Shown here one piece after another: positions 16,965-61,852 of a stretch of 64,000 bases of DNA. Under the pieces are notes generated by a model. It ran no database searches. It was given only the letters and a program-made list of their open reading frames with translations, and was not told the DNA's origin. Origin of the DNA: Squalus acanthias (lineage: Eukaryota); contig CM059427.1 of the NCBI GenBank assembly GCA_030390025.1, positions 186,310,001-186,374,000 of the forward strand, written 5' to 3'. The translations under genes were made by a program, and so were the position numbers. The stretch's first letter is position 1. Each line of letters opens with the position of its first letter.

Positions 16965-17160
16965 GAGTGTGGCACTCCCACAGTACTGTCTCTCCGACAG
17001 TGCAACACTCTCTTAGTACTGAACCTCCAGTAGTGCAGCGCTCCCTCAGTACTGCCCCTCCGACAGTGCAGTACCCCCTCAGTACTTCCCCTCCGACAGC
17101 GCAGCGCTCCCTCAGTACTTCCCCTCCGACAGTGCAGCACTCCCTCAGTACTGCACTAAA
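16965..17160 (-). repeat. 30-bp DeuSINE-derived minisatellite (about 6 units) within a SINE at ~16770-17180
   Basis: ctccctcagtactgcccctccgacagtgcagc units. Confidence 0.85.
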
Positions 17161-24104: not shown

Positions 24105-26600
24105 GTCAGCTGTGGCTCAGCACTCTCTCTCACCTCAGGTCATGGGTTCCAGTCCCCATTCCAGAGATTTGAGCACCATAATCCAGGCCAACACTTCCCA
24201 GTTTGAGTACTGAGGGAGCACTGCACCATCAGAGGGTCAGTACTGAGGGAGCACTGCACCATCTGAGGGGCAGTACTGAGGGAGCGCTGCACTGTCAGAG
24301 GGTCAGTACTGAGGGAGCGCTGCACCATCTGAGGGGCAGTACTGAGGGAGTGCTGCACTGTCGGAGGGGCAGTACTGAGGGAGCGCTACATTGTCAAAGG
24401 GGCAGTACTGAGGGAGTGCTGCACTGTCTTAGAGGCACTACTGAGGGAGCGCTGCACTGTCAGAGCGGCAGTACTGAGGGAGCACTGCACTGTCTTAGAG
24501 GCAGTACTGACGGAGTGCTGCACTGTCAAAGGAGCAGTACTGAGGGAGTGCTGCACTGTCAAAGGGGCAGTACTGAGGGAGAGCTGCACTGTCAAAGGGG
24601 CAGTACTGAGGGAGCACTGCACTGTCAAAGGGGCAGTACTGAGGGAGGGCTGCACTGTCAAAGAGGCAGTACTGAGGGAGCACTGCACTGTCAAAGGGGC
24701 AGTACTGAGGGAGCACTGCACTGTCTTAGAGGCAGTACTGAGGGAGTGCTGCACTGTCAAAGGGGCAGTACTGAGGGAGTGCTGCACTGTCAAAGCGGCA
24801 GTACTGAGGGAGCACTGCACTGTCGGAGGGTCAGTACTGAGGCAGCACTGCACTGTCGGAGTGTCAGTACTGAGGCAGCACTGCACTGTCAGAGGGGCAG
24901 TACTGAGGGAGCACTGCACTATCGGAGGGGCAGTACTGAAGGAGCACTGCACTGTCAGAGGGTCAGTACTGAGGCAGCACTACACTGTCGGAGGGGCAGT
25001 ACTGCAGGAGCACTGCACTGTCGGAGGGTCAGTACTGAGGCAGCACTGCACTGTCGGAGGGGCAGTACTGAGGGAGCACTGTACTGTCGGAGGGTCAGTA
25101 CTGAGGGAGCACTGTACTGTCGGAGGGTCAGTACTGAGGGAGCACTGCACTGTCAAAGGGGCAGTACTGAGGGAGCACTGCACTGTCAGAGGGGCAGTAC
25201 TGAGGGAGCGCTGCACTGTCAAAGGGACAGTACTGAGGGAGCACTGCACTGTCAAAGGGGCAGTACTGAGGGAGCATTGCACTGTCTGAGGGGCAGTACT
25301 GAGGCAGCACTGCACTGTCAGAGGGGCAGTACTGAGGGAGCGCTACACTGTCAAAGGGGCAGTACTGAGGGAGCGCTGCACTGTCTTAGAGGCACTACTG
25401 AGGGAGTGCTGCACTGTCAAAGGGGCAGTACTGAGGGAGTGCTGCACTGTCAAAGGGGCAGTACTGAGGGAGCGCTGCACTGTCAAAGGGGCAGTACTGC
25501 GGGAGTGCTGTACTGTCAAAGGGGCAGTACTGAGGGAGCGCTGCACTGTCAAAGGGGCAGTACTGAGGGAGCACTGCACTGTCAAAGGGGCAGTACTGAG
25601 GGAGGGCTGCACTGTCAAAGGGGCAGTACTGAGGGAGCGCTCCACTGTCAAAGGGGCAGTACTGAGGGAGCACTGCACTGTCTTAGAGGCAGTACTGAGG
25701 GAGTGCTGCACTGTCAAAGGGGCAGTACTGAGGGAGTGCTGCACTGTCAAAGCGGCAGTACTGAGGGAGCATTGCACTGTCTGAGAGGCAGTACTTGGGG
25801 AGTGCTGCACTGTCAAAGGGGCAGTACTGAGGGAGTGCTGCACTGTCAAAGGAGCAGTACTGAGGGAGCACTGCACTGTCAAAGGGGCAGTACTGAGGGA
25901 GCACTGCACTGTCTTAGAGGCAGTACTTGGGGAGTGCTGCACTGTCAAAGGGGCAGTACTGAGGGAGTGCTGCACTGTCAAAGCGGCAGTACTGAGGGAG
26001 CACTGCACTGTCTTAGAGGCAGTACTGAGGGAGCGCTGCACTGTCAGAGCGGCAGTACTGAGGGAGCACTGCACTGTCTTAGAGGCAGTACTGAGGGAGT
26101 GCTGCACTGTCAAAGGGGCAGTACTGAGGGAGCACTGCACTGTCTTAGAGGCAGAACTGAGTGAGTGCTGCACTGTCAAAGCGGCAGTACTGAGGGAGTG
26201 CTGCACTGTCAAAGGGGCAGTATTGAGGGAGCACTGCACTGTCTTAGTGGCAGTACTGAGGGAGCGCTGCACTGTTAGAGCGGTAGTACTGAGGGAGCGC
26301 TGCAGTGTCAAAGGGGCAGTACTGAGGGAGCACTGCACTGTCTTAGCGGCAGTACTGGGGGAGTGCTGCACTTTTAGAGCGGTAGTACTGAGGGAGCGCT
26401 GCAGTGTCAGAGATGTCATCTTTCACATGAGACATTAAACCAGATGCCCCATCTGCCTCTCAGGTGGACATAAAAGATCCCAAAGCCACTATTTCGAAGA
26501 AGAGCTCTCCACAGAGTTCTGGTCCAATAGTTATCCCTCAACCAACATCACTAAGTACTTCATCAACTGTAAAGCACTTTGGGACGTCCCGAGGATGTGA
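24105..26600 (+). mobile_element. DeuSINE (SacSINE1/AmnSINE1-like) copy containing a large internal minisatellite
   Basis: Head gtcagctgtggctcag...catgggttcc, then array, then gtcatctttcacatgagacattaaacc...caggtggacataaaagatccc body and L2-like tail. Confidence 0.75.
24206..26410 (+). repeat. 30-bp minisatellite, about 73 units
   Basis: cagtactgagggagcactgcactgtcaaagggg-type units with variants; explains the repetitive ORFs at 24203-26419. Confidence 0.97.
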
Positions 26601-28718: not shown

Positions 28719-28986
28719 GGATTAAAATTCTCAGACTGTTATCTACAGATATATCTATATTAAACATCTTACATCTGTGCACAATTTGTGTCTTCTAAAC
28801 GTTACTTCTTTTTGTCGCATTCCCCCTCCCTATTACCTAAATTCCTGTGACAACATTTATAATTGAAATTTCCTATGTAAACATATCACACTGTAATTAC
28901 ACCCTCCTACCATTGGTGGCGCTGCAATGTCACAGTTTTGCATCTCAGAGGAAATCTTTCCACTGTATTTATGATATTATTAACAC

Positions 28987-29140
28987 ACAGGGACCAGAAG
29001 GGGAGCTTCCTGCTGGGTTTACGATGTTAGGATACAGAGACCAGGGAGAATCTTCCTGCTGTGTTTACAATGTTGCTCAGACACAGGGACCATGGGGAAT
29101 CTTCTGGCTGTGTTTACAATGTTGTTAAGACAGAGGACTG
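28987..29140 (+). repeat. Short degenerate tandem repeat, about 45-48 bp x 3
   Basis: acagggacca..gggaatcttc..gctgtgtttacaatgttg repeated. Confidence 0.65.
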
Positions 29141-29411
29141 TGGAAATCTACCTTCCCCTTCAAATAGAGGCCAGGGCTAGGCCTGGCTCTGAGCCCCCCG
29201 CCCCCGCACACCCCACCCCCCTGTCCCCCTCGCCCGCCACCCTGTTCGTTTAGTCGGCCCTGCTCAAACTTACTGGTCTTACACATGAAGAGTGTGAGAA
29301 GTTGCACAACACCAGGTTATAGTCCAACAGTTTTATTTGAAATCACAAGCTTTCGGAGCGCTGCTCCTTCGTCAGGTGAAGTGAGGAGATGTCTCTTCAC
29401 ATCTCTTCACT

Positions 29412-29449
29412 TCACCTGACGAAGGAGCAGCAGCTCCGAAAGCTTGTGA
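29412..29449 (+). ncRNA. Minimal type I hammerhead ribozyme motif (mirror copy on - strand 29343-29379)
   Basis: TCAC-CTGACGA-A-GGAGC-AGCA-GCTCC-GAA-AGCT-T-GTGA. Confidence 0.72.
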
Positions 29450-29978
29450 TTTCAAATAAAACTGTTGGGGGTAAAAATTCACTTGGTTGCGCCTCCCGTT
29501 AGCGCCTTAAGAGGGCGCTAATGGGGCGCTAAGCCGCTAACGCCCGGGCGCAGCGATGTTTGCGCCGCTCGAGAACTTAACTTGAGATTGTGCGGCGGCG
29601 CTAAAACTTACCGCTGCGACCACCTGCGCGCGCAGATTATGACGTCATTCCATGGTGCAATGCCCTTGGGGCGCCCCGGAGCGGAAATTGAGTGGCGCCC
29701 CCTGCCTTACCGCCTGGCGCTTCCAACGACCGGAAGACTGGAACGCTATCAATCGGTGTGGGGCTGGGGGGGGCGCTATTTAAAGGGGGCCTCTTCCTGT
29801 CTTTTTCTGTGGTCGACATTTATGCACCACTCGTTCTGAGAGAGAGAGAGAGATTCGGAGAGAGAGAGAGAGAGACTTCTACATTGACTCAACGCTTTGT
29901 GAGGTAGTTTTGCCTATTCATCCTAACTTTGTTGCTACTTTAGTTGCTGTCCCTCATTACTTTTCTGGCAAAGAGAAT

Positions 29979-31139
29979 ATGGGGGCTGCACTGATTGGGG
30001 GCGTCGTCCTGCTCCAGCTGAATCGGAGGATACAGAGACGCAGACAGAGAGTGGCAATGATGGCCAGACGGAGGAGGGCCATCAGGCGCATGTACAGGAG
30101 AGCTTACCCTCCCAGGGTATATCGTGAACAGCTCTCCTACATCCATGTGTCCGAGGAGCTATGTTTGCGAAGGCTGCGATTCAGCAAGGAGGTGGTCACT
30201 GAGCTCTGCCACCTGCTGCAGCCAGATCTGCAGCCTCAGCTGAGGTCCAGGACGTCTCTGTCGGTGGCAGTGAAGGTCACAGTGGCTTTGAACTTCTACG
30301 CCACTAGCTCATTCCAAGCTGCTGTTGGGGACCTCGCCAATATCTCCCAGTTCGCGGTGCATCGCTGCATCCGGCAGGTCACCAATGCCCTCTTCAGAAG
30401 GAGACGAGAGTTCATCTCTTTCCCTATGACCCCAGACAAGCAGCGTGACCGTGCTCTGGGCTTTGCGAGGGTAGCGGGCTTCCCCATGGTGCAGGGCGCC
30501 ATTGACTGCACGCATGTGGCTTTGCGTGCTCCGCGAGAGAATGCAGAGGAATTCAGGAACAGAAAGGGGTTCCATTCCTTGAATGTCCAGTTGGTCTGTG
30601 ACCACAGACAGGTGATACTCGCTGTCAATGCCCACTATCCTGGCAGCTGCCACGATGCTTTCATCCTGCGCCAGACTACTGTGGCAGAAGTTTTCGAGGC
30701 ACCGCATCAGCCAGTTGGTTGGCTTCTCGGGGACAAGGGGTACGCATTGAGCACCTGGCTGATGACACCGCTCCGTACGCCAAACACCCCTGCTGAGCTG
30801 CGGTACAATGAAAGCCATCAAGCAACCAGGAACATTATTGAGCGCACAATCGGCGTGCTGAAACAACGGTTCCGCTGTCTGGACCATTCCGGAGGAGCCC
30901 TGCAGTACTCGCCTGAGCAAGTTTCGAACTTCGTAGTCGTGTGCTGCATGTTGCACAACATGGCAATCCTCAGGACCCAGCCAATGCCACCAGGCCTTGT
31001 AGCACCACCAGAGGAGGAGGAGGAAGAGGAGGAAGAGGACGAGGACGATGATCATCAGCAGCACCAAGGCGGGAGGGCGGCCCACAATGGTCAAACTGCA
31101 AGGGCCGTCCGTCAACGGCTAATAGCAAGCCGCTTCTAG
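29979..31139 (+). CDS. Harbinger transposase (HARBI1-like DDE nuclease), 386 aa
   Basis: Uninterrupted ORF with GAIDCTH, NRKGFHSLNVQLVCD, PGSCHD, LLGDKGY, IERTIGVLKQRFRCL, CCMLHN; first ATG at 29979; AATAAA at 31301. Confidence 0.95.
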   Translation: MGAALIGGVVLLQLNRRIQRRRQRVAMMARRRRAIRRMYRRAYPPRVYREQLSYIHVSEELCLRRLRFSKEVVTELCHLLQPDLQPQLRSRTSLSVAVKVTVALNFYATSSFQAAVGDLANISQFAVHRCIRQVTNALFRRRREFISFPMTPDKQRDRALGFARVAGFPMVQGAIDCTHVALRAPRENAEEFRNRKGFHSLNVQLVCDHRQVILAVNAHYPGSCHDAFILRQTTVAEVFEAPHQPVGWLLGDKGYALSTWLMTPLRTPNTPAELRYNESHQATRNIIERTIGVLKQRFRCLDHSGGALQYSPEQVSNFVVVCCMLHNMAILRTQPMPPGLVAPPEEEEEEEEEDEDDDHQQHQGGRAAHNGQTARAVRQRLIASRF

Positions 31140-31433
31140 GGCCCCTGCCATTGCTACCAACATTAATCAACCCAGCACGCAACCCCTAAGCCGGCCAAGG
31201 CACCAATAATTCCAACCACCAACCATGTATATTTTGAATACAGAAACTTATTTATTTTACAAACTCTGTGTGTGTCAATTCCTCATGACAAACTCATAGA
31301 AATAAACACAAAAAAACAGTCAATAACATAACTGGTTCTCACAACCTGGAGATAATGTCCAAAACACTAAACAAAAGTTGGGCCATGAACCTCGGCCTTT
31401 AATAAAAAAATGACCAGCATTTTGTCACACCTC

Positions 31434-33202
31434 CTACTTTTTGCCCTTCGAGGGTGATCTCCTTCCCTTGCGCACTTCCCCCCTTCTAACCCTACTGCTC
31501 CTCCGTAATGGGACCTCAGTGGCTGCAGCAAGGCTGGTGGAAGGCTGCTGCTCGTCAGACCCTGACACTGCAGATGCCCCTGAAGGACGGCCTCGACCAC
31601 TTCTGGGCCTGGAGGGCCCGGCTGCAGACTGCACCAACTCTGCATGGGCGGCAGCAGTCTGTCCTACAGGCGGTGGCAAGTGCAGTGGAGAAGTGACAGT
31701 GTTGGCAGCAGGAATGCTGTCATCGTGCGAGAGGACAGCAACTCCCTGCTCGCCCGACACACTGGCACTCCCACGGGGCAGCACTTCAGCATCCGGAGCA
31801 ATCTGCCGGAGAACAGATTGCTGGCCTGCTGCGGCGCGGTGACAGCCCCGGGGACATGTGCACGAACCATCGAGGTTGGCAGCAGTCTGTGCTCGCGTGG
31901 CCTCCATCTGAGTCTGTATGAGAGCAGTCAGAGGTGGGATCACGGCAGCCAGTGACTGAATTGCAGCACTAAGCGTTAGTGTGGCATCCGCCTGTGCTAC
32001 AGCGAAGTGCTCCACACTCCTTGCCAGTGACTCAATGCATTCGGGCACCCTTCCCACTGCACCCATGAGCTCAGTGTGCATGCCCACCGCCTGGGTGTTC
32101 ATTTCTGCAATCAGCCGCTCCTCCTCTGCGTCCATTGCAGTAGGAGTGTCTGGCATACTCTCCCTCTGGGGAGAAGGCCCCCGTTCTTCCCTACCCCCCC
32201 CATGGCGTTGCTGCAGCCCGCTGGGTCCTGGAGCTTCACCATCATCAGCCCCTTCCCCCCTGCTCCCCTCCGGGGAAGGCGTGTTCCCAGTGTGGGCATG
32301 GGCTTCCTCGGGAGAGGGTGGCACTGATGCTCTGGCTTCCTCTTCCTCCTCAGCTGCAGCATCACTCCCAGTGGCAGCTTCAGGGCCCGTCTCCTCAGCT
32401 GGTGAATCACCATCTGAAAGCAGGGAGGTACAAGAGTGGCTTTAGCGTGAGGACAGGGTGGCAGTAAGGGAGGAATAAGTGCAGCGAGTTAGCAAGTTGT
32501 ATTGAAAGTGTCAAAGGCTGGTGTTGTGAGGGACAAGTGGAAGGACAGAGGACAAAAAGGTGATGACCTTACCATTGCTGTCCAGAACGGGGTCGGCGTC
32601 TCCAGTGGCGACGGGACCGATCACCCGGCTTGCCACAATCCTGTGGACGCGCTCCTCCAGATCGCTGAGGGGTTGCAGCTGAGGCCGCCCTCCACCTGTC
32701 CGTTGCTGCTGTCTCCTATTATGAGCCAGCTTAGCCTGCAAGAAAAAGGACAGCATCTGAGTAAATATACAGCCATGGTCTTGCCTGATGTGCCTCCCAT
32801 AGGTGAATAGCCCTTACTGAATGTAAAGTGTGGAATGTGTGTGTGTGTTTGATGAAAGGGCCATAGGTGTTGGATGAGTGTTGTGCATTGGGGTTTTAAG
32901 ACCCTCTGGCCATAGAGTGAGGTTGAGATGGAGGGATGGAGAGGTATTGAGAAAAAGCCGCTCACCCTGATGACCCGAGTGAGGTCGTTGAACTTTTTGC
33001 GGCATTGAGTATGGGTCAAGGGCACCATGCTCCTGGAGGAGACGCTCTGAGCCACCTCCCTCCACACTCTTCTGAACTCGCGTGGCAAAGGCCTCCTGCC
33101 ACTCTCAGGGAAGAGCATACATCGTCTGCACTCCACTGCGCCAACCAGAGCATCCAAGGCCCGCTCGGTGAAGCGATGAGCGCGTTCTCTCACCCTCTCC
33201 AT
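31434..33202 (-). CDS. Harbinger Myb/SANT-like DNA-binding protein, 3 exons (33202-32966, 32735-32573, 32413-31434), 459 aa
   Basis: RFTERALDALV...W.EVA..VS...QCRKKFNDL trihelix; exon 2 NRRQQQRTGGG; GT-AG sites with phases 0 and 1 join into one 1380-nt frame; basic C-terminus. Confidence 0.88.
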
Positions 33203-34364
33203 GCTTGGCAGCAAAATGGATTCACAGGTCTCTCCAGGCTGAGATTCAAGGCTGCAATGAGCAGGGTGTGGCTGGGGAGCAAGTGGCCCCCCCCCGCTTT
33301 AAGAAGTGTCCGGCGCCAGTGTGTCTGTGTTCCCTCGCTAACTGGCAGCAGCTGCGCTGCGCTCGCGCGCTGAGTTAGCGCCTCACTCCTTGGCCTTTGT
33401 GCCTTAAGACAGGTGTGCAGCGCCTGCTTTAGCGCTCCACTCACCTCCCGGGGCGGTAAAAGTGAAGTTTCCTGTCAGTGCCGATAATTAGCGCCAAGCG
33501 CTAATATTTGCGTCCAGACGATATTTGCGCCCCAAATGGGGCGCGACCTAATTTCTACCCCTTGGACTATAACCTGGTGTTGTGCGACTTCTCACATTTG
33601 TCCACCCCAGTCCAACACCGGCATCTCCACAACATGAAGAGTGGGCACATACGAGAACTATCGAAGGGCTGCCCTGTTTTGCTGGAACAGAAAACCCGGC
33701 AGGGGTCGCAGAAGAGAATGGGGGAACAGCAGGGTAAATATCCTTCTTCTTCCCAACCCCCATTGCTGTCTCTACCGAGAGGGAACAGCAGTCTTGAGTC
33801 AGAGGCCAGAGTGCTACCAACTGAGCCAAGCTGACACTGAAACCAGCACCAAACTGTCTGCTTACCATGTAGATTATAGTAACACGCAGACCCAGTCTCG
33901 CTGCTAACACAACTACTGCTGGTCTCTGTATCTGAGGGAACAACGCAAGACATTTGAAGCCCGCATGCAAAATGCCTTTTGGCGTATTTTATTCCCAGCC
34001 TTGGTCTTGGATTTAGGATTGCACGCTTTCATGCCAGTCCCTGTCTTGCCCTTCCTCTTTCCCTGTCTTATTTCTCCTTTCTCACCTCTCCTTTCTCCCC
34101 TTATGCTCTCCCTTTCATCCTCTCTCTCTCTCTCTTTCACATTCTCCATTCTCTCACATTCACCCTCTCCTCTGGTCTCCTGAGACTGTGGCAGAGAGAG
34201 AACGCGACAGAGGGTGTGTGGGTGTGAGATGGGGAATGTGACAGAAGGTTAGTGAGTGTGAATGAATGGGTGTATTACAGTGCAAGGAGGGTGAGTCTGT
34301 GAATGAATGAGTGTGTTACAGTGCGAGTAAAGATAGTGAGTGTGTGAATCAGATTGTGTGTTAA

Positions 34365-36135: not shown

Positions 36136-36607
36136 GTGGAAACTCCATGTCAACAGCTGCCTAGCTTTAAGCAGAAATACCACTACAGTGTCAGCGCACT
36201 AAAGGTTAACAGTTTGCTTACAACACAAGTCAAAGTGATGTTTTCTCACATGCTGCCCACTTCCTGATTTAACTCACAGAGACACATCTAATTAAATACA
36301 CAGAGGGCGCAGAACAGGAAGAGGCCATTCGGCCCAAGCAGTGCGTGTCAGCAATTATTCCCCAGGCAAGCAGTCGGCCAGGGCCTGGGTAAGTAACGCA
36401 ACGGTTGTAATTCACTTCCACCACCAACGTCTTCCTTTGTTGGTGTTGTGACTTTATAAAGATAATTGAGGCCTTCTAAAGATTTCTACTTATTATTGAG
36501 ATCTGGGCTTACGGCTCAAGTCTGTCGTACAGGACATCTTTCTAGTTCAAGGGGTGAGGGAAATCCGGAGCCTTTAGCCTGTAATCCAGGCTGATGCTCC
36601 CAGTACC

Positions 36608-38705
36608 AGTACTGAGAGTGCTGCACTGTCGGAGGGGCAGTACTGAGAGAGTGCTGCACTGTCAGAGGGGCAGTACTGAGGGAGTGCTGCACTGTCGGAG
36701 GAGCAGTACTGAGGGAGTGCTACACTGTCGGAGGAGCAGTACTGAGGGAGTGCCGCTACTGTCAGAGGGGCAGTACTGAGGGAGTGCTGCACTGTCGGAG
36801 GGGCAGTACTGAGGGAGTGCTGCACTGTCGGAGTAGCAGTTCTGAGAGAGTGCTACACTGTCGGAGGAGCAGTACTGAGGGAGTGCTACACTGTCGGAGG
36901 AGCAGTACTTAGGGAGTGCCGCTACTGTCAGAGGGGCAGTACTGAGGGAGTGCTGCACTGTCGGAGGAGCAGTACTGAGGGAGTGCTGCACTGCCGGAGG
37001 GTCAGTAGAGGGAGTGTTGCACTGTCAGAGGGTCAGTACTGAGGGAGTGCCGCTACTGTCAGAGGGGCAGTACTGAGGGAGTGCTGCACTGTCGGAGGAG
37101 CAGTACTGCGGGAGTGCCGCTACTGTCAGAGGTGCAGTACTGAGGGAGTGCTGCACTGTCAGAGGTGCAGTACTGAGGGAGTGCTGCACTGTCGGAGGGT
37201 CAGTAGAGGGAGCGCTGCACTGTCGGAGGGGCAGTACTGAGAGAGTGCTGCACTGTCGGAGGAGCAGTACTGAGGGAGTGCTGCACTGTCAGAGGGGCAG
37301 TACTGAGGGAGTGCTGCACTGTCTATGGGCAGTACTGAGGGAGCACTGCACTGTCAGAGGGGCAGTACTGAGTGAGTGCTGCACTGTCAGATGGACAGTA
37401 CTGAGTGAGCACTGCACTGTCAGAGGGGCAGTACTGAGGGAGTGCTGCACTGTCAGGTGGGCAGTACTGAGGGAGTGCTGCACTGTCAGATGGGCAGTAC
37501 TGAGTGAGTGCTGCACTGTCAGAGGGGCAGTACTGAGGGAGTGCTGCACTGTCAGAGGGGCAGTATGAGGGAGTGCTGCACTGTCAGAGGGGCAGTACTG
37601 AGAGAGTGCTGCACTGTCGGAGGAGCAGTACTGAGGGAGTGCTGCACTGTCAGAGGGGCAGTACTGAGGGAGTGCTGCACTGTCTATGGGCAGTACTGAG
37701 GGAGCACTGCACTGTCAGAGGGGCAGTACTGAGGGAGTGCTGCACTGTCAGGTGGGCAGTACTGAGGGAGTGCTGCACTGTCAGATGGGCAGTACTGAGG
37801 GAGTGCTGCACTGTCAGGTGGGCAGTACTGAGGGAGTGCTGCACTGTCAGAGGGGCAGTACTGAGGGAGTGCTGCACTGTCGGAGGGTCAGTAGAGGGAG
37901 CGCTGCACTGTCGGAGGGGCAGTACTGAGAGAGTGCTGCACTGTCGGAGGAGCAGTACTGAGGGAGTGCTGCACTGTCAGAGGGGCAGTACTGAGTGAGT
38001 GCTGCACTGTCAGATGGACAGTACTGAGTGAGCACTGCACTGTCAGAGGGGCAGTACTGAGGGAGTGCTGCACTGTCAGGTGGGCAGTACTGAGGGAGTG
38101 CTGCACTGTCAGATGGGCAGTACTGAGTGAGTGCTGCACTGTCAGAGGGGCAGTACTGAGGGAGTGCTGCACTGTCAGAGGGGCAGTATTGAGGGAGTGC
38201 TGCACTGTCAGAGGGGCAGTACTGAGGGAGTGCTGCACTGTCAGAGGGGCAGTACTGAGTGAGTGCTGCACTGTCAGAGGGGCAGTACTGAGTGAGTGCT
38301 GCACTGTCAGATGGGCAGTATTGAGGGGGCGCTGCACTGTCAGAGGGGCAGTACTGAGGGAGTGCTGCACTGTCAGAGGGGCAGTACTGAGGGAGTGCTG
38401 CACTGTCAGATGGGCAGTACTGAGTGAGTGCTGCACTGTCAGAGGGGCAGTACTGAGGGAGTGCTGCACTGTCAGATGGGCAGTATTGAGGGGGCGCTGC
38501 ACTGTCAGAGGGGCAGTACTGAGGGAGTGCTGCACTGTCAGAGGGGCAGTACTGAGGGAGTGCTGCACTGTCAGAGGGGCAGTACTGAGGGAGTGCTGCA
38601 CTGACAGATGGGCAGTATTGAGGGGGCGCTGCACTGTCAGAGGGGCAGTACTGAGGGAGTGCTGCACTGTCAGAGGGGCAGTACTGAGGGAGTGCTGCAC
38701 TGTCG
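36608..38705 (+). repeat. 30-bp minisatellite, about 70 units, inside a DeuSINE-like SINE (~36530-38990)
   Basis: cagtactgagggagtgctgcactgtcagagggg units followed directly by SINE body gccgtctttcggg...aagatcccacggccact. Confidence 0.97.
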
Positions 38706-39083
38706 GAGGTGCCGTCTTTCGGGTGTGGTGTTAAACCAAGGCCCCATCTGCCCTCTCAGGGGAATGTTAAAGATCCCACGGCCACTATTCCGAAGAAGAG
38801 CAGGGGTGTTCACCCAGTGTCCTGGAGCCAAAATTTATCCCTGAACCAACATCATTAAAAAACTGATTATCTGGTCATTGTCACATTGCTGTTTGTGGGA
38901 GTTTACTGCATGCAAATTGGCTGCCACGATTCCTATATTACAACAGTTCAAAAGTGCTGCATTGGCTGTAAAGCAGTTTTGATATCCTGAGAGCTGTCGG
39001 GCAAGAGGTGAGGTTCTGATTAACTCCTCTTTCTCTTTCAGACCTTGAGAGTGAGAAGTTGATGAAACATCTGGGAGCGGACA

Positions 39084-42100: not shown

Positions 42101-45100
42101 AAGAATTGTTTTCACATACAGCAATGTTGTGTGCTGAAGAAAAGGCATGAACACAGGTGGATGTAAGATCCACGGGCAATGTGACTAGGAGTCTGTCCGA
42201 CATGTGGGTTCACTATAATACTGATTGCCCAACCTCTCCTCCCCAGTCCTCCTCCCCAATCACAGAACATGATGTGCGGTGTTTTATATTCATTCTTGGA
42301 TTACTTTGCCTCAGGATTTACCAGGAAGACTAACAGGGTGGACATGACATTAGAAGAAGAGATCAAACAAGTTATCAAGACATTTAAGATAGAAAGGTGG
42401 CGGGGTGGTGGTGGGGAGGGCTAATTGATAAACTAGTCAAACTCGCAGAGTATAAAATCCATGCTCCGATGGATTGCATCTAAAATAAGCTAGGGAAGAG
42501 ATAGCAGAGACACTATTATATCTATGTGAAACCTGATTAGAAAAGGGAATAGCACCAAAGGACTGGCGGACAGCTAATGTTATTCCTCTATTTATAAAGG
42601 GTGAAAGAACAACTCCAGGGAACTGTAAACCAGTTAGCTTAATGTCACTCAAAAATGTAATAGAAATCCATCCAGAAAACAAAAATATAATAAAGAATGT
42701 ATTTCAAAAGGGAAGGTCATGCTTGACCAACCTTATTGAATTATTTGAAGAAGTAACAGAAAAAGTAGATAAGGTAGTGTAGACTTGGATACACTCGCCC
42801 ATTCCTAGTTGCCTTCAGTGCTGGTGGACCTTCTCCTTGAAACGCTGCAGTCCGTGTGCTGAAGGTGCCCTCACAATGTCTCTAGGTAGAGAATTCCAAT
42901 ATATTGACCCAGTGACGAGGCAGCAACGGTGTGTGACCTGGAGGTGATGGGCATCCAATCACATTGCTGCTACTGTCCTTCTGGGTGTTGGAGGTGGTAG
43001 GGGAGGGAAGTGTTGTCAACGTAGAGAGTTCCGCTTTGCGGAACACCTCTGTTCAGTCCGTAAGGGGGACCCCGAGCTTCCGGTCGCCTGCTACTTTAAT
43101 TCTCCACTCCACTCCCACTCAGACCCTCACCATCCTCGGCCTCTTACATTGTTCCACTGAAGCTCAACGTAAGCTCGAGGAACAGCACCTCATCTTTCGA
43201 TTAGGCACTTTACAGCCTTCTGGACTCAACATAGAGTTCAACAATTTCAGATCATAACCTCGGCCCCTATCATATATATTTTTTTCCACACTTTTTTTTC
43301 CCTTCTCTCCCACATGGCAGCTGTCTTTCATTCTGCCAGCGCAATTTACACTTCATCTAGAGCCATCCTTTGTTTTTTAACCTGTCCCATTACCATCTCA
43401 TTTTGCCTTGCCTTAATGTCTCTTAACCTCTCCTGCCTTCTATCCTATCACAGACCTTCCCTTTTGTTCTTTCATCCCCTCCCCCCTTTCGAGCTCCCAC
43501 ACTTGCTTAAAAATCTGTTCCATTTCCTGCTTTTTTCCTGTTCTGACGAAAGTTCATCGACCTGAAACGTTAACTCTGTTTCTCTCTTCACAGATGCTGC
43601 CTGCCCTGCTGAGTATCTCCAGCATTTTCTGTTTTTAGTGAAGAGTTCCTTGTTTGTCCTGTAGATGGTACACACTGCAGCCACTATGCGTTCGTGATGG
43701 AGGGGGTGGATATCAAGTCTAGTGGGTCTGCAAGCCATCCAGTGCTAAATATTGATATTTCTTTCCTCAGCTGTATTGTCACAAGAGTGGAAAGGTGGCA
43801 GTCCACGAGATGTGACAGCACAGGAAGGTTTGTGCGCACAGATTCCCTGTCGTTACAGTTATCCATCACGTCTGGCAAACGAACCGCGAGGTGGAGTCTG
43901 GTTTAATACCGAGAAAGTGAAAGACTGGGCTCCCCTAGCCTTTCACTCCAAGGATCACAAGCATGAGTCGCCACGGTTACGCCATCGGACCCGGCTGTCT
44001 GGCGATTTGAAAGATGGCGACTGTTCCCTGATTATAAACGATATCATACCGCAAGATGCAGGACCTTATTTTTTCAGAATAGAATTTGACAATGGGAAGA
44101 GCCATAACTACGACCCTGCAACACGGCTTCATGTTTCTGGTAAGTGCTGTGTCGACAATTCACGTTTAACTGTCAATGGGAAATAACATAAACTGTGGCG
44201 TTTCCATATTAACACAAAACACAGCTTATTATAACGCAGCGTCTGATGATCAATAACCTGCTGATACCTTCCAGTTCAGTCCTAAAGCAAGCTCTGATCT
44301 TTATTAGCAATGATGAAATGTCCTGCCTGTGTCCATCAATGTTCCGGAGTGACTGCCAATGAGCCGGAAGTTACCGGAAGCTGCGCAGAAGCATTCTGCA
44401 CATAAATGTCAGGTCCCAAATTTGAAAAAGTAACGGTCACCACAGCAGACAGAGGAGCCAATAGTGATCAGCGAACTCGGTGAGAGTACAATGAAACTCT
44501 CACAAGCTGACAACATCCTAATATCACCTTCAAGTCACATTAAAGACCTCACAATACCTGTGAAAAAAAACCCACTGGAACTGCACATGTGCAACTACTC
44601 CCAGTTGGTTGGCAGCAGTCGCGTCCTTAATGTTATCAGGTTATCGACTCCCATCTATCTCTAATCATCTCTAAGCATAGAGACAAAAGTAAGAACTTGC
44701 ATTTCTATAGCGCCTTTAATGACCTCAGGATGTCCCAATGCGCTTTACAGCCAATGAAGTGCATTTGAAGTGAAGTCACTGTTGGAACGTAGGAAACAGA
44801 TCAGACAATTTGTGCACAACAAGCTCCCAGAAACAGCCCGGTGATAAATGAACAGATCATCTTTTTTTAGGTGATGGTTGAGAGATAAATGCAAATAGTT
44901 TCCGTCCTGCCGTAGACAGGATTGAATTTAACGTTGGCAGAGATCTCTTGGGAGAATGATGAGTCAGTGACCGGCTCCACCATCCCCACCCAATATTGTC
45001 AATTCAAGGGTCTCAGAGTAAAAGTGTATTAAGAACAGTGACAGACACTCCGCCAGGTCTGAAAATAGGGAAGTACTTTCGCTTACATAGTTACAGAGAG

Positions 45101-48100
45101 TTACAGAGAGATACACAGAGTTACAGAGAGTTACACAGAGTTACATAGAGGTACACAGAGTTACAGAGATACATAGAGTTACACAGAGTTACAGAGTTAC
45201 ACAGTTACATAGAGTTACACAGAGATACACAGAGTTACACAGTTACATAGAGTTACACAGAGATACATAGAGTTACATAGAGTTACACAGAGTTACATAG
45301 AGTTACATAGAGTTACACAGTTACATAGAGTTACACAGAGTTACATAGAGTTACACAGAGTTACACAGTTACATAGAGTTACACAGAGTTACACAGAGTT
45401 ACAGAGATACATAGAGTTACAGAGAGTTACACAGTTACATAGAGTTACACAGAGATACATAGAGTTACAGAGAGTTACATAGAGTTACACAGAGTTACAC
45501 AGAGTTATATAGAGTTACATAGAGTTACACAGTTACATAGAGTTACACAGAGTTACATAGAGGTACACAGAGTTACACAGAGTTACACAGTTACAAAGAG
45601 TTACACAGAGCTCCATAGAGTTACACAGAGTTACACAGAGTTACATAGAGTTACACAGAATTACACAGAGTTACACAGAGTTACATAGAGTTACATAGAG
45701 ATACACAGAGTTACAGAGAGTTACATAGAGGTACACAGAGTTACACAGAGTTACAGTGTTACACAGAGTTACACAGAGTTACACAGTTACATAGAGTTAC
45801 ACAGAGTTACACAGAGTTACACAGAGTTACACCGAGTTATACAGAGTTACAGAGAGTTACACAGAGTTACATAGAGTTACATAGAGATACACAGAGTTAC
45901 AGAGAGTTACATAGAGGTACCCAGAGTTACACAGAGTTACAGTGTTACACAGAGTTACACAGAGTTACACAGTTACATAGAGTTACACAGAGTTACACAG
46001 AGTTACACCGAGTTATACAGAGTTACAGAGAGTTACACAGAGTTACATAGAGTTACATAGAGATACACAGAGTTACAGAGAGTTACACAGAGTTACATAG
46101 AGTTACACCGAGTTATACAGAGTTACAGAGAGTTACACCGAGTTATACAGAGTTATACAGAGTTGCATAGAGTCGACAGCACAGAAACAGGCCGTTCAGT
46201 CCAACTGGTCCATGCCGGTGTTTATGCTCCACACAAGCCCTCTCCCACCCCTCTTCATCTCACCCTAAAAGCATATCCTTCTATTCCTTTCACCATCATG
46301 TGTTTATCTAGCTTCCCCTTAAATGCCTCCATGCTATTTGCCTCAACCACTCCATGTGGTATTTAGTTTCACATTCTCACTACTCTTTGGGTGAAGAAGT
46401 TTCTCCTGAATTCCCTATTGGATTTATTAGTGACTATCTTCTATTGACAGCCTCTAATTTTGGACTCCCCCCACAATTGGAAACATTTTCTCTACGTCTA
46501 CCCTATCGAACCCTCTAATAATTTTAAAGGCCTCTATCAGTTCTCCCCTCAACCTTCTCTTTACTAGAGAAAAGAGCCCCAGCCTGCTCAATCTTTCCTG
46601 AATGTTGTAACCTCTCAGTTCTGATATTATCCTTGTAAAAGTTCTTTCTCTTGCGGGACTGTGATTTCTATTTGAACTGATGCTTCACGTTACATTTATC
46701 TAAAAGGATCTATTCTCTGTGTGTTAGATTTCACAGATAAACCCACGATATTCCCCGCTGAAATTATTGCAGGAAAGCGTGTGGACGTCAGCTGCACCTT
46801 CAACACCACGTGCAATGGAACAGCACCTGACTTAACCTGGGTCAATCCCGCTGACGTACCCGGGTCAGTCTCAAACAATGTAACTCAGCATGGCATCACT
46901 CTGATATATACTTCTGTTCTGACCCTGATCCCATCACTCAAGCACCACGGACAAACTCTCACCTGCAGAGTCAGATATCCAAACGTTTCATCAGAGCAGA
47001 CACTAGCACTAACTGTGCAATGTAAGTATGAACATCCTTTATTCTAGATTGCGCGTAGCAAGATCCCACAAACAGCAATGTGGTGTTGACCAGATCATCT
47101 GTTTTTTTAGTGATAATTATTAGCCAGGACACCGGGGAGAACTCTTCTTTGAATAGTGTCATGGGATCTTATGTCCACCTGAGAGGGCAGACGGGGCCTC
47201 AGATAAACATCTCATGTGAAAGACAGCACCTCTGACAGTGCATCACTCCCTCAGTACTGCACCTCTGACAGTTCATCACTCCCTCATTACTGCACCTCTG
47301 ACAATGCATCACTCCCTCAGTACTGCACCTCTGACAGTGCAGAACTCCCTCAGTACTGCACCTCTGACAGTGCAGAACTCCCTCAGTACTGCACCTCTGA
47401 CAGTTCATCACTCCCTCAGTACTGCACCTCTGACAGTTCATCACTCCCTCAGTACTGCACCTCTGACAATGCATCACTCACTCAGTACTGCACCTCTGAC
47501 AGTGTAGAACTCCCTCAGTACTGCACCTCTGACAGTTCATCACTCCCTCAGTACTGCACCTCTGACAGTTCATCACTCCCTCAGTACTGCACCTCTGACA
47601 GTGTATCACTCCCTCAGTACTGCACCTCCGACAGTGCAGAACTCCCTCAGTACTGCACCTCTGACAGTGCAGAACTCCCTCAGTACTGCACCTCTGACAG
47701 TGCATCACTCCCTCAGTACTGCACTAAAGTGTCTGCCTGGATTACGCACTTTGTGATGATGGAACTTGCATTGATATCACATGATTCACGTTCTCAGGAT
47801 CTCTCGAAGTGCTTCACAGTCATGTAAGTTAACTGATCTTTATTTGTTTTTAGACGCACCACGGAATCTCTCAATTACTTCTCATGATACGATTAAAAAT
47901 TCCTCGATCAATATAAAAGAAGGGAAATCTGTAGTGATACTCTGCTCTGTCGAGAGCTTCCCAGCTTCTAACCTGATGTGGCGACATCTTGGTGTCACAA
48001 TGAACAGAACAAGTTCCAGCAACAAGCTGTGGTTGGAGTTTCCTCACGTTACATCCAGGGTCACAGGAGACTATCAGTGTGTGGCGGAGAATGAACATGG

Positions 48101-51100: not shown

Positions 51101-54100
51101 GCCAGCTCCAGCTCACTGTACCAGGTTTTGAGTGGATGAACCACTGGTATTTAACAGGACCATTGGAGGCTGCTCAAGAAATGGCCGGAAAACCTTTTAA
51201 CAGTTACATTTCTGTGGAGCCAGGGGGAGATGGAGTGCTTCTCCTGGCTCCACAATAATACTGTGGCCTGGGTTCGACCCCCACACAAGCCCACGGGTTT
51301 GGCTCCCCAAAGGACCTACCTGTGGGCTGGTTCAGCATCGAAGCTGGCTGGAATTCATCAGGCCCCCACTGGGACACAACGATTGGCGTCTGCAGATCGT
51401 CTGTTCCATTCTAATGAGGGCTGATGCTGAATTTCATCTGGCCCCAGGCCGGCAGGGACCGGCGCTCAAAGCAATCACTTCGCCAACTTGATGCCCATTT
51501 TGGGCCCAAGTTCAATTTGTCACTGTAACTCAGCATGGCGTCACTCTGATATATACTTCTGTTCTGAGCCTGATCCCATCACTCAAACACCACGGACAAA
51601 TGCTCACCTGCAGAGTCAGATATCCATCCGTTACATCGGAGCGGACACTAGCACTAACTGTGCAATGTAAGTCTGAACATCCTTTATTCTAGATTGCGCA
51701 TAGCAAGATCCCACAAACAGCAATGTGGTGTTGACCAGATCATCTGTTTTTTTAGTGATAATTATTAGCCAGGACACCGGGGAGAACTCTTCTTTGAATA
51801 GTGTCATGGGATCTTATGTCCACCTGAGAGGGCAGACGGGGCCTCAGATAAACATCTCATGTGAAAGACAGCACCTCTGACAGTTCATCACTCCCTCAGT
51901 ACTGCACCTCTGACAGTGCATCACTCCCTCAGTACTGCACCTCCGGCAGTGCAGAACTCCCTCAGTACTGCACCTCCGACAGTGCAGAACTCGCTCAGTA
52001 CTGCACCTCCGACAGTGCATCACTCCCTCAGTACTGCACCTCCGGCAGTGCAGAACTCCCTCAGTACTGCACCTCTGACAGTGCAGCACTCCCTCAGTAC
52101 TGCACTAAAATGTCTGCCTGGATTAAGCACTTTGTGATAATGGAACTTGCATTGATATCACATGATTCAAGTTCTCAGGATCTCTCGAAGTGCTTCACAG
52201 TCAATGTAAGTTAACTGATCTTTATTTGTTTTTAGACGCACCACGGAATCTCTCAATTACTTCTCGTGATACGATTAAAGATTCCTCGATCAATTTAAAA
52301 GAAGGGAAATCTGTAGTGATACAGTGCTCTGTCGAGAGCTTCCCAGCTTCTAACCTGACATGGCGACATCTTGGTGTCACAATGAACAGAACAAGTTCCA
52401 GCAACAAGCTGTGGTTGGAGTTTCCTCACGTTACATCCAGGGTCACTGGAGACTATCAGGGCTGTATTTTTTGAATGGAGGCGAGTTGGAGGCGGGACTG
52501 CTGCTTGTCATGTCAATGTCCCGCCTCCATCCTCGCCTGACCATTCAGAGGGATTTTCCCCTGATTGAGCTTGTTAAGCCCGCCCTCTGGAACAGGCTAT
52601 ATTGGACTGGGTACTGTGCAATGAGAAGGGACTAATTAGTAATCTTGTTGTACAGGGACCCTTGGGTCAGAGCGATCATAACATGATCGATTTCTCACTC
52701 GAAATGGAGAGCGAAGAAATTGACTCAGAGACTAAGGTCCTGAATTTAAACAAGGGGAATTATGATGCCATTAGACGGGAACTGAGTAGGTCTGATTGGA
52801 CAATGTTCCTGGGAGGACTGGAGGTAGATAAACAATGGCAAGCATTTAAAGATAGAATGACAAAATTGCAAAAATTGTTTATACCAATCTGGCATAAAAG
52901 GAAATCTAAAAAGGTGACTCAACCGTGGATAACAGGGGAAATTAGAGACAGCATAAAATCCAAAGATAGGGCGTATAAAATAGCCAAAAAAAGCGCCAGA
53001 GCGGAAGATTGGGAACAGTTTAAGATAGAGCAAAGGAGGACAAAGGGCTTAATCAAGAGGGGCAAAATAGCTTACGAAAGCAAGCTGGCGGAAAATATAA
53101 AAACTAACTCCAAAAGCTTTTATAAGTATATCAAGAGGAAAAGACTGGTGAAAACCAAAGTTGGTCCATTGCAGTCAGATACGGGGGAATATATAACGGG
53201 AAATAAGGAAATGGCAGACCAACTAAATGCATACTTTGGGTCAGTCTTTACGAAGGAAGACACAAAAAACCTCCCTGGGATATCGGGAAAAATAGGGACA
53301 TTGGCAAAGGAGGAACTGACGCAAATCAATATCTCTAAGGATATGGTGTTAAGGAAGCTAAAGGGATTGAAGGCGGACAAATCCCCAGGGCCTGATAACA
53401 TGCATCCTAGGGTACTGAAGGAGGTGGCCCTAGAGATAGCGGATGCACTAAGTATGATTTTTCAGAATTCATTAGACTCGGGAACAGTGCCCATGGATTG
53501 GAGGGTAGCTAACGTTACCCCACTATTCAAAAAGGGGGGTAGGGAAAAAGCAGGTAATTATAGACCTATAAGCCTTACATCAGTTGTGGGCAAAATGCTG
53601 GAGTCCATCATTAAGGATGAAATAGCGGAGCACTTAGCAAATGGGGACAGGATAGGACAGAGTCAACATGGATTTACAAAGGGTAAATCGTGCTTGACTA
53701 ATCTATTGGAATTTTTTGAGGGAGTAACTGGTAAAATAGATGGGGGAGAGCCAGTAGATGTGGTGTACCTGGACTTCCAAAAGGCCTTCGATAAGGTCCC
53801 ACATAAAAGATTAGCAGGGAAAATTGAAGCTCATGGGATAAAGGGGAAAGTATTGACATGGATAGAGAACTGGCTGTCAGATAGAAAACAGAGAGTTGGA
53901 ATAAACGGCTCATTTTCTGAATGGCAGGCAGTAACAAGTGGGGTACCACAGGGATCTGTCCTGGGTCCCCAGCTGTTCACAATTTACATTAATGACCTGG
54001 ATCAGGGAGTCGGATGCAGCATTTCCAAATTTGCAGATGACACTAAACTAGGAGGGGGGGTGGGCTCAGAGGAGGAGACCAGGAAGCTCCAGAGCGATTT

Positions 54101-57100
54101 GGACAGACTGGGTGATTGGGCGGATAAATGGCAGATGCACTATAATGTGGACAAGTGCGAAGTTATCCACCTTGGGTGCAGGAACGGGAGGGCAAATTAT
54201 TATTTAAATGGCAATAAATTGGGAGAGGGGGAAGTACAGAGAGACCTGGGTGTTCTTGTACACCAGTCACTGAAGGCGAGCATGCAGGTGCAACAGGCGG
54301 TCAAGAAGGCAAACGGTATGCTGGCCTTCATAGCAAAAGGGTTGGAATACAGGAACAGGGATACCTTGCTGCAGCTGTACAGGGCACTGGTGAGACCACA
54401 CCTCGAGTACTGTGTACAGTTTTGGTCGCCTCATCTGAGGAAAGATGTTCTTGCCATGGAGGGGGTGCAGCGGCGATTCACCAGGCTGATACCAGGAATG
54501 GCGGGATTGACCTATGAGGAGAGACTATGTAGTTTAGGGATGTACACACTGGAGTTTAGAAGATTGAGAGGGGACCTCATAGAAGTGTATAAAATTCTGA
54601 CAGGTCTAGACAGACTAGATGCAGAAGGAATGTTTCCCTTGGCGGGTGAGAACAGAACTAGAGGACATAATTTAAGGATAAGGGCTAAACCATTTAGGAC
54701 AGAAATGAGGGGGAATTTCTTCACTCAGAGGGTGGTGAACCTGTGGAACTCATTGCCACAGAGGGCAGTGTACGCCAGCTCATTAAATATATTTAAGAGG
54801 GAATTAGATATATTTCTACAGGCAAAAGGGGTTAAGGGTTACGGAGAGAAGGCGGGGACGGGATACTGAATTGGAGGATCAGCCATGATCTCATTAAATG
54901 GCGGAGCAGGCTCGAAGGGCCGGATGGCCTACTCCTGCTCCTATCTTCTATGTAATCTATGTAATCTATGTAAGCCACTGACAGATCACGTCAACGTCAG
55001 ATGTGCTATCTGTCAAGACTTATTGAAAGAAGAAATGACAGCGTTTGACAGCTCTGTGAAGCTGTCCAACACTGACATTCGCTTTAGTTTGATGAGGCTT
55101 TGAGGTGAGGACTCATCAAACATTGCAAATTTGTAAATTTCATTTGTCTGATGGATCGGAGGGTCCATCAGCCATTACCTGAAATTGATAAGCAGGATGT
55201 CGGCTCTCCCGATCCTCCGCGCCTAAAGGCTATGGAAGGAAAACAAGGTAAGTGAACATTTTTTAACACTGATCACTCACCTTACATACTTACCACTCCA
55301 CACTTGCACCCATCACTCACCTCTACATCTTACTTCTAGGTGCCTCCGACCCCCGCAGACCTCCTTCACGTCTCCTCCAACCCGACGGGGTCCTCCGAGG
55401 TCGGGAAGCCTTCACCTGTGAAGGTAAAATGGCACTAATCCTTTTGTCTGCCTGTTAACTACCTGTTAACAGGCAGTTAAAAGGATTAAATGCCTTTCCC
55501 GCCTCCAGGAGACGGGACCCGAAGCTGCACATCTTCCTGCCTCCTGGCAAATGGGCACGGAGGCGGGATGGGTGCGGGTTTGCCATCCGCCCCCAATTTC
55601 TCCGAGTTTACCGGCTGTCCCGCTTCCATGCCCGCCTCCTCGGGGCTTGGAAAATCGAGCCCTCAGTGTGTGGCTGAGAATAAACATGGGGCAGTGGAGA
55701 GGGTCATAACCATCACTGTGGAATGTGAGTGTACAGATACCATCACATATGAACATACAAATTAGGAGCAGGAGTAGGCCACTCGGCCCCTCGAGCCTGC
55801 TCCGCCATTCAATAAGATCACGGCTGATCTGATTACTCCACATTCCAGCCTACCCCCGATAACCTTTCACCCCTTTGCTTATCAAGAATCTATCTACCTC
55901 TGCCTTAAAAATATTCAAAGACTCTGCTTCCACCGCCCTCTGAGCAACAGAGTTCCAAAGACTCACGATCCTCTTTGAGAAAAAGTTTCTCCTCATCTCT
56001 GTCTTAAATGGGCGACTCCTTATTTTTAAACAGTGACCCCTAGGGATCTTATATGTTTCAATCAAGTCACCTCTTACCTTTCTAAACTCCAGCGGATACA
56101 AGTCTAGCCTGTCCAACCTTTCCTCATAAGACAACCCGCCCATTCCAGGTATTAGTCTAGTAAACCTTCTCTGAACTGCTTCCAACGCATTTACATCACA
56201 TATACACACACATGCACACATGCACATGCACACAAGCGCACTGACATACAAGCATGCACTGCACCTACATAGACTCACAAACACACACATGGAGGCACAC
56301 ATGCACATGCACGAACACACACACACGCACACACTTACCTCCACACACAAACTTGCATACAGAAGCACAGACCCACACACATGAACACACACATACACAG
56401 GCAGACACACACGCATATGCACAGACAAGCAAAGATGGAATACGGGATCCTTTCCTTTATTAGCTGAGGCACAGAATATAAGAGCAGAGAGGTTATGCTT
56501 GAATTGTATAAAACTCTAGTTAGGCCACAGCTAGGGTACTGCGTATAGTTCTGGTCACCACATTACAGGAAAGATATGATTGCACTCGAGAGGGTACAGA
56601 GGAGATTTACGAGGCTGTTGCCAGGACTGGAGAATTGTAGCTATGGGGAAAGATTGGATAGGAATGGGTTGTTTTCTTTGGAACAGAGGAGGCTGAGGGG
56701 AGACTTGATTGAGGTGTATAAAATTATGATGGACCTAGATAGAATGGATGGGAAGGACCTAGTTCCACGAGCAGAGAGGTCAATAACCAGGGGCCATAGA
56801 TTTAAAGTAATTGGTAGAAGGTTTAGAGGGGAGTTGAGGAGAACATTTTTCACCCAGAGTGTGGTGGGGGTCTGGAACTCACTGCCTGAATGGGTGGTGG
56901 AGGCAGAAACCCTCATCGCATTAAAAAACTACTTGGATATGCACTTAAAGTGTCGTAACCTACAAGGCTACAGACCAAGAGCTGGAAAGTGGGATTAGGC
57001 TGGATAGTTCTTTTTCTACCGGCACAGACATGATGGGTCAAATGGCCTCCTTCTGTGCCGTTAATTTCTATGATTCTATGACACAAAGGCACACATGCAC

Positions 57101-61000: not shown

Positions 61001-61852
61001 TTGGGTGATTGGGCAGATGCATGGCAGATGCAGTATAATGTGGATAAATGCGAGGTTATCCACTTTAGTGGCAAAAACAGGAAGGCAGATTATTATCTGA
61101 ATGGCAATAGATTGGGAAAAGGGGAAGTGCAGCGAGACCTGGGTGTCCTTGTGCACCAGTCGCTCAAGGTAAGCATGCAGGTGCAGCAGGCGGTTAAGAA
61201 GGCAAATGGTATGTTGGCCTTCATAGCGAGAGGATTCGCGTACAGGAGCAAGGATGTCTTGCTGCAGTTGTACAGGGCCTTGGTGAGACCACACCTTGAG
61301 TATTGTGTGCAGTTTTGGTCACGTTATCTGAGGAAGGATGTTCTTGTCATGGAGGGAGTGCAGCGAAGATTCACCAGACTGATACCTGGGATAGCAGGAA
61401 TGAGATATGAAGAGAGATTGGGTCGATTAGGCTTATATTCACTAGAGCTTAGAAGAATGAGAGGGGATCTCATTGAAACTTATAAAATTCTAACAGAACT
61501 AGACAGACTAGATGCAAGAAGGCTGTTCCCGATGGCGGGTGAGTCCATAACCAGGGGTCACAGTCTAAGGGTAAGGGGTAAGCCATTTAGGAATGAGATG
61601 AGGAATTTCTTCACCCAGAGAGTGGTGAACTTGTGGAATTCTCTACCACAGAAGGCAGTTGAGGCCAATTCATTAAATGTATTCAAGAAGGAGTTAGATA
61701 TATTTCTTAAGGCTAAGGGGATCAAGGGATATGGGGAGAAAGCAGGGACAGGGTACTGAATTTGGATGATCAGCCATGATCGCATTAAATGGCGGAACAG
61801 GCTCGAGGGGCCGAATGGCCTACTCCTGCTCCTATCTTCTATGTTTCTATAT
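58001..61852 (+). mobile_element. Near full-length CR1 LINE, inactivated
   Basis: ORF1 from ATG 58076 (CSSC..CGKC finger, SGNH/GDSL esterase IGDSIVR...DGLHL) with stops; ORF2 endonuclease 59149-60039, internal deletion near 60390, RT 60587-61759; ctatgttt tail. Confidence 0.96.

Follow-up and report, generated by a model that had tools for sequence, protein, structure and literature searches.

The DNA analysed here, referred to as the window, is a stretch of 64,000 nucleotides of contig CM059427.1 (positions 186,310,001 to 186,374,000, forward strand, of assembly GCA_030390025.1), and all coordinates below count from its first letter. The window includes a Harbinger transposon inserted in a palindromic host repeat, with a transposase gene and a Myb/SANT gene that face each other from opposite strands (Table 1). 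The first-pass annotation described this element as an apparently intact, potentially active and recent autonomous Harbinger. We consider it most probable (about 0.8) that it represents, at full length, a young Harbinger family with two genes and very many copies, that it inserted in a preferred 15-bp palindromic target site and has decayed neutrally since then, and that it is likely a weakened bystander and not a source of further copies.

Table 1. Features of the Harbinger element and of the host repeat that it interrupts, in window coordinates.
Feature	Positions	Strand	Remarks
Host repeat, left part	29293..29467		Palindromic, very abundant; from repeat counts and sequence
Left target-site duplication	29465..29467	+	TTG; read from sequence
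Harbinger element	29468..33561		4,094 bases; transposase gene on +, Myb/SANT gene on -
Left terminal inverted repeat	29468..29479	+	12 bp, starts GGGG; 11/12 bases pair with right end
Left subterminal region	29468..29832	+	CpG-rich; retained in the 893-bp element; putative region bound by the Myb protein
TATA-like box	29777..29784	+	5' of the transposase gene; by sequence, putative function
Transposase open reading frame	29979..31139	+	386 amino acids, stop-free; PF13359 DDE_Tnp_4, E 2e-39
Convergent polyadenylation-like signals	31251..31306		AATAAA on - at 31251-31256 and on + at 31301-31306; by sequence, putative
Myb/SANT exon 3	31434..32413	-	980 nt; acidic and low-complexity, basic C-terminus
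Intron 2	32414..32572	-	159 nt, GT-AG; joint 32413-32573 in probable-RNA contigs
Myb/SANT exon 2	32573..32735	-	163 nt
Intron 1, predicted	32736..32965	-	230 nt, GT-AG; GT in 29/29, AG in 28/29 copies
Myb/SANT exon 1	32966..33202	-	79 amino acids; PF13873 Myb_DNA-bind_5, E 8e-7
Right subterminal region	33297..33561	+	CpG-rich; common to the 893-bp element
Right terminal inverted repeat	33550..33561	-	12 bp; 11/12 bases pair with left end
Right target-site duplication	33562..33564	+	TTG; read from sequence
Host repeat, rest of interrupted arm and tail	33565..33635

The terminal inverted repeats (TIRs), with the single mismatch already noted, lie at the short end of the published PIF/Harbinger (PHIS) ranges. 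Taking out the element together with one TTG yields a palindrome of about 208 bp, the arms of which are nearly alike and differ by few changes, and this empty form of the host-repeat site occurs 55,726 times in the genome; the exact duplication and reconstructable empty site of the first-pass annotation are thereby confirmed. The same ends with a 3-bp duplication were observed in 78 of the 94 fetched copies having both ends (L047 to L050, which have no paired ends, were left out of the duplication and target counts), and this anatomy is thus not due to chance. The left subterminal region harbors short motifs repeated in both orientations between 29487 and 29604. Polyadenylation-like signals of both genes are present in the gap at 31240-31310 where they had been noted, and more are found at 31398-31406. 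By eye, the 5' untranslated region of the transposase gene may also hold a GT-AG intron (29905-29972), for which no joint occurs among those listed. The observed/expected CpG ratio is 1.13 at the left end and 0.73 at the right end, versus 0.36-0.37 in the rest of the window. The ends are thus CpG-rich as proposed, but they are not preserved as such: private CpG transitions run at 2.5 to 5.4 times the non-CpG rate across family copies, ends included (2.5 to 3.5 times). Since the ends are decaying via CpG transitions, their CpG richness reflects youth, and its interpretation as a sign of protection was rejected.

The transposase was correctly described as stop-free with catalytic motifs. Its triad, D176 (30504), D252 (30732) and E288 (30840), is made of the commonest residues at these positions in 120 homologues. 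These 120 listed relatives are mostly from cartilaginous fishes, with 55-70% identity for the best matches, which makes a shark or ray the likely host; nearly all carry the source name 'putative nuclease HARBI1', which is an annotation label. No relative with a solved structure was found by sequence. The protein departs once from the residues conserved in at least 80% of the 120 aligned homologues, by a Gly110Ser change at 30306: among the 110 homologues with a residue at this position, 93 have glycine and one has serine.

The three exons of the Myb/SANT gene join into one 459-amino-acid frame with GT-AG ends at both introns. We found the exact joint of intron 2 in contigs of runs X17 and X18 (organism A) and X19 (organism B). 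Runs X17 to X20 are RNA by guess, none being on record as RNA, the joints considered are 15 of the 21 listed, and the reads of these contigs are not assignable to the window copy. No intron 1 joint occurs among these 15 of 21. The three-exon model of the first-pass annotation therefore stands as to its frame and to the splicing of intron 2 in probable RNA, but the splicing of intron 1 was not seen. Exon 3 has no Pfam match and no outside homologue among the fetched loci or proteins, and a search for longer Myb relatives gave one match only. The Myb domain contains an Arg62Leu change (33017-33019) that is seen in 1 of 77 family matches, the other 76 having Arg62, as do all three outside homologues. 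Arg25Cys (33130), also in exon 1, is private to the window copy, and so is Met57Val. There is no coding insertion or deletion relative to the family alignment, and the compensating frameshift near 31870 that had been envisaged as a disabling change is absent. In intron 1, a 54-bp unit (32764-32817) is single here and is repeated in tandem up to about six times in other copies.

We performed a search of the genome (3.71 Gb), in which the best 36 of 4,676 candidates were scored. All 36 scored places are near full length and 97-100% identical to the element. The exact left 26-mer has 12,700 matches in the genome and the exact right 24-mer 8,781, while exact 24-mers from the transposase and Myb genes have 6,758 and 6,105 matches, respectively, with 0 for each reversed control. 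Close relatives are thus numerous, with more than 6,000 exact matches to the gene 24-mers, although such counts skip mutated copies and may include duplicate contigs. The family represents about 0.7% of the assembly, assuming that each counted copy is about 4.1 kb long. Of the 74 copies examined, 52 have open frames for both genes along with their start, stop and splice sites: 25 of 29 top matches, 8 of 16 copies picked by position on the sequence labelled C1, and 19 of another 29 copies, from a younger branch. The top-match sets favour clean copies, and the position-picked set required exact end motifs. L025, whose match stops at 4034 of 4,094, was left out of all counts; L071, which duplicates L033, was also left out. 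The family tree shows a succession of several subfamilies. One of them (L031, L032, L040, L044, L045 and L046) is distinguished by an 86-88-bp (once 168-bp) duplication in Myb exon 3, near 32178; its Myb frame is shifted in 5 of 6 copies, several at a G run, where slippage or assembly error may be responsible, and its transposase is open in 5 of 6. The element is present in runs labelled organisms A to H. Outside organism A, the runs compared were X19 and X7 (B), X8 (C) and the raw RNA run X21 (F), from which no read was placed. Run X7 provided two flank contigs with no difference, and run X8 contains the element at about 99% identity, at very low depth and with hardly any coverage of the flanks, a pattern equally compatible with trace DNA and with another genome. 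Neither horizontal transfer nor a spread of the family across species is therefore claimed.

The pattern of changes among 45 copies differs between singletons and shared changes. Without CpG transitions, singletons give a ratio of nonsynonymous to synonymous change (dN/dS) of 1.00 in the transposase (25 synonymous, 68 missense and 3 stops) and of 1.22 in the Myb gene. Changes common to at least 4 of the 45 copies have a ratio of 0.18 for the core of the transposase and of 0.20 for Myb codons 1 to 133, which shows purifying selection on both proteins. Both domains were thus important along the spreading lineages, and individual copies decay in a neutral fashion once inserted. In the remaining Myb gene (31434-32413), shared changes amount to 26 missense versus 5 synonymous, a dN/dS of 1.92 from small numbers, which would fit either relaxed or positive selection on the C-terminal part.

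Among the 74 copies, the window copy has about 10 private substitutions in its 4,094 bases. A 31-mer that spans its private bases at 30147 and 30161 occurs once in the genome, and its nearest relative among the best 36 of 4,676 scored candidates differs by 33 substitutions. Because this pair of bases is unique and the nearest scored copy so distant, the window copy has likely left no detectable descendants since it acquired its private changes; because rare or private changes affect the conserved Gly110 and Arg62, it is also likely impaired. The age of the family was estimated with the mutation rate of the epaulette shark, given in a passage of PMC10587355 as 7 x 10^-10 per base per generation (95% interval 1.4-14.1 x 10^-10). 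Six private changes in 2,541 coding bases, the median per copy, correspond to about 3.4 million generations, and copies of the younger branch differ on average by 14.4 from their majority sequence in 4,148 bases, or about 5.0 million generations. The closest pair of this branch (30 copies) differs by 7 substitutions in 4,148 bases, or about 1.2 million generations. These ages are upper bounds, since the copies are sparsely sampled, errors inflate the counts of changes and the mutation rate was measured in a different species. The element is thus young by sequence, as had been claimed, but 'recent' may mean millions of generations at the slow mutation rate of sharks. The minimum pairwise difference among the 29 top matches is 17 substitutions, and no identical copies at unrelated loci were found among the 30 younger-branch or the 29 top-match copies (best 36 candidates scored per search). 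Copies L038 and L039 differ at a single position in 2,541 coding bases; they lie 32 kb apart and, since their left flank is common to both, their near-identity is read as a local duplication. For the young copy L092, no empty-site joint was seen among 15 of the 72 joints listed, in four DNA contig runs whose contigs break at repeats. A joint 29464-33562 was seen in X18 and is not assignable to the window locus, as the empty site exists 55,726 times.

Paired family ends about 893 bp apart are common on C1, and 20 places chosen by this spacing were fetched. Their majority sequence is non-coding and is identical to the window element at 348 of 365 bases on the left and 239 of 265 on the right. 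This 893-bp element has the same target preference as the full-length copies and a similar level of private change (median 0.34%). It was likely moved in trans by the family's proteins, so that the earlier proposal of a mobiliser of non-autonomous elements agrees with the shared ends and target preference, mobilisation itself being presumed. By analogy with Harbinger3_DR and mPing, binding of the element ends, transport of the transposase into the nucleus and its positioning would fall to the Myb protein, and excision and insertion, with a stagger of 3 bases, would be carried out by the DDE transposase; the same proteins would serve the 893-bp element. Other Harbingers were observed near family copies. 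A different 2.9-kb Harbinger-like element, with a 47% identical transposase and its own short TIRs, lies between the two genes of one copy (L035:2208-5149, on C1), and other Harbinger families adjoin L020, L076 and L099 (transposase 59-71% identical, Myb exon 44%), as if several Harbinger families shared landing areas.

The target profile, obtained from 78 sites, is symmetric: 71 have A at -4 and 68 have T at +4, and the triplet is preceded by C (-1) in 52 and followed by G (+1) in 60. The duplicated triplet has A or T at its centre in 73 of the 78 and is TWA in 15, TNA in 16 and CWG in 1. The preferred 15-bp target is R-R-A-(C/G)-W-C-[N-W-N]-G-W-(G/C)-T-Y-Y, with an information content of about 8.7 bits over positions -7 to +7 (53 sites). 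A short pattern found at 16 of the 78 sites presumably represents retroelement tails. The repeat that hosts the window element is likely a Penelope-like end with a minimal hammerhead-like motif; the motif was read by eye and agrees with a passage in PMC6155905, and Rfam returned nothing at gathering score, the repeat matching generic hairpin models only and no hammerhead.

The exact base of the host repeat that is interrupted in the window is a hot spot of the family, with 204 left and 162 right ends, or 366 insertions in both orientations (the patterns used for the 366 insertions and for the 55,726 empty sites differ in stringency). This base is used about 950 to 1,900 times more than expected from a uniform distribution, in excess of the roughly 290-fold that is predicted from its target score of 8.2 bits. 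Such an excess might point to the copying of one composite by the host repeat, or to an evolved tie to the repeat instead of the motif. We hold these explanations to be very unlikely, for the two orientations are equally used, L001 and L026, both at the hot-spot site, belong to different subfamilies, the 366 insertions are about 3% of the 12,700 left ends, and the site scores below the family median of 9.9 bits. The use of both orientations and by different subfamilies favours a hot spot driven by the motif. In one host repeat (L048:333-453), each of the two arms has a family left end at the same base, and the two ends face each other head to head; with an occupancy of 0.65%, chance predicts about one case of this kind.

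The element is of the two-gene autonomous type, and its open frames, catalytic triad, splice sites and TIRs justify calling it apparently intact. Together with its few private substitutions, they would also suit a fully competent autonomous copy. This is quite doubtful, however, considering the rare or private changes at Gly110 and Arg62, the base pair 30147/30161 that no other copy has, and the neutrality of singleton changes in the family; 'potentially active' and 'possibly still mobile' thus apply poorly to a copy that is likely weakened and for which no near-identical sister was found among the scored candidates. Whether the family is mobile in the germ line today through some intact copies, probably other than this one, is a separate matter, and we think it unlikely, if less so than the competence of the window copy. 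Present mobility would be consistent with the proportion of open-framed copies, with the splicing of intron 2 in contigs of three probable RNA runs bearing two organism labels, and with the succession of subfamilies in the tree; the closest pairs, which differ at 7 to 9 of 4,148 bases, are about at the level of the heterozygosity of 0.002 reported for one shark, and some insertions may thus still be polymorphic. It is opposed by the lack of an identical pair at different loci among the 30 younger-branch copies (minimum 7), by best matches to L033 that differ by at least 11, and by the reading of L038 and L039 as a local duplication. The names given to the transposase relatives would rather evoke a domesticated host gene pair of the HARBI1/NAIF1 kind, but the family has dispersed copies in the thousands, which bear TIRs and a variety of target duplications, and its dN/dS is near 1 after insertion, which leaves this next to no credence. 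It was rejected on copy number and neutral decay.

Our preferred reading, a weakened copy in a large and young family, has several points against it. With 36 of 4,676 candidates scored, a closer sister of the window copy may have been missed. Ser110 is also present in one other family copy as well as in the one homologue mentioned above, and trans complementation by other copies is possible. Contigs of X17 and X18 cross the boundary between the predicted intron 1 and exon 1. Finally, a central part of the 893-bp element, about 130 bp long, is not alignable to the window element, so that the former is not a simple deletion of the window subfamily and derives from a sister lineage.

Elsewhere in the window, arrays of a 33-bp unit (up to 67 copies) were observed at 16972-17154, 24206-26409, 36607-38709, 47226-47724 and 51871-52105; the long repetitive open reading frames that they contain are probably not genes. 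A 10-bp array of 112 copies lies at 45085-46173, and a 49-bp array of three copies (28981-29136) lies just left of the host repeat. Reverse-transcriptase-like open reading frames at 2167-2946, 52578-54869 and 58328-61759, one of them open over 763 amino acids, resemble by eye those of CR1-type long interspersed elements.

The family is reminiscent of the zebrafish elements Harbinger3_DR and Harbinger3N_DR, with which it shares a DDE transposase and a Myb-like gene, a duplication of 3 bp, a palindromic target of 15 bp and the existence of a non-autonomous partner. According to PMC2836001, transposition requires the two proteins, of which the Myb protein binds the TIRs and the transposase and brings the latter to the nucleus, and vertebrate targets span 15 bp. 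The Harbinger3_DR target consensus is given as AAACAC-CWG-GTCTTT (PMC3016246). Nine of its 12 flanking positions have the base that is commonest here and the other three (-5, +3 and +5) the second commonest, whereas its triplet CWG is found at 1 of 78 sites of the shark family. Harbinger3_DR needed reconstruction, whereas most of the examined shark-family copies are open-framed, and the two are likened by structure and target, not by sequence. NuwaI and NuwaII, two PHIS groups described by Han et al. 2015 (PMC4482050), likewise have two open reading frames with Myb/SANT, TIRs that begin with GG or GGG, and lengths of 4-4.7 kb. In NuwaII, the triplet tends to be preceded by C and followed by G, and these bases are preferred but not fixed in the shark family (52 and 60 of 78). 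The triplets set the family apart, since NuwaI has CWG, NuwaII TNA (16 of 78 here) and the strict PIF/Harbinger group TWA (15 of 78), and passages of the same paper name no cartilaginous fish among the hosts of NuwaI and NuwaII. With a DDE_Tnp_4 transposase and its triad, a Myb/SANT gene, TIRs with a 3-bp duplication, and an extended palindromic target, the shark family has the features of the PIF/Harbinger (PHIS) superfamily; it appears to work like Harbinger3_DR and belongs in this superfamily, outside the subgroups defined by target-site duplication.

Rice Ping/Pong and its Tourist-type miniature inverted-repeat transposable element (MITE) mPing share with the shark family an abundant non-coding partner with the same ends and a requirement for two proteins, presumed here; they differ by a target of 9 bp versus 15 bp in the shark family, the partner of which is 893 bp long versus 100-500 bp for MITEs (PMC2836001). 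Teleost Harbinger elements have the same two-gene structure and are transcribed (PMC9179366). In the survey reported there, all Harbinger-like sequence accounts for 0.002-0.14% of teleost genomes and none was recorded in the elephant shark; at about 0.7%, if each copy measures about 4.1 kb, the shark family alone would amount to five times the total Harbinger content of any teleost surveyed. Searches of mainly open-access literature, at the level of listings and abstract openings apart from the papers cited here, yielded no account of a Harbinger family from sharks or rays, nor of a vertebrate Harbinger that is active in cells without having been reconstructed, a matter on which the family tables of PMC4482050 could bear. 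The element type is thus known, and what is notable here is the size of the family and its relaxed target triplet. A further view, speculative and in our estimate rather improbable, is that of a naturally mobile vertebrate Harbinger, still jumping, with more than 6,000 gene-bearing copies in about 0.7% of a shark-like genome, which would keep the 12 flanking bases of Harbinger3_DR with a relaxed triplet.

In the accounts cited, the one vertebrate Harbinger reported to transpose is a reconstructed one, and the one cartilaginous fish surveyed had none. The present family, with its size and its many open-framed copies, shows that Harbingers have spread recently and make up a major share of at least one genome, likely that of an elasmobranch. 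Native protein pairs are thus available for assay, for which the window copy is a poor choice, and the combination of shared flanks with a relaxed core makes target choice testable. If the family is still jumping, these native pairs would be a ready tool, and would make it possible to tell directly which of the two proteins recognises the flanks and which the core. In a genome with a low mutation rate, intactness, CpG richness and 99% identity are compatible with a transposon age of a million generations or more.

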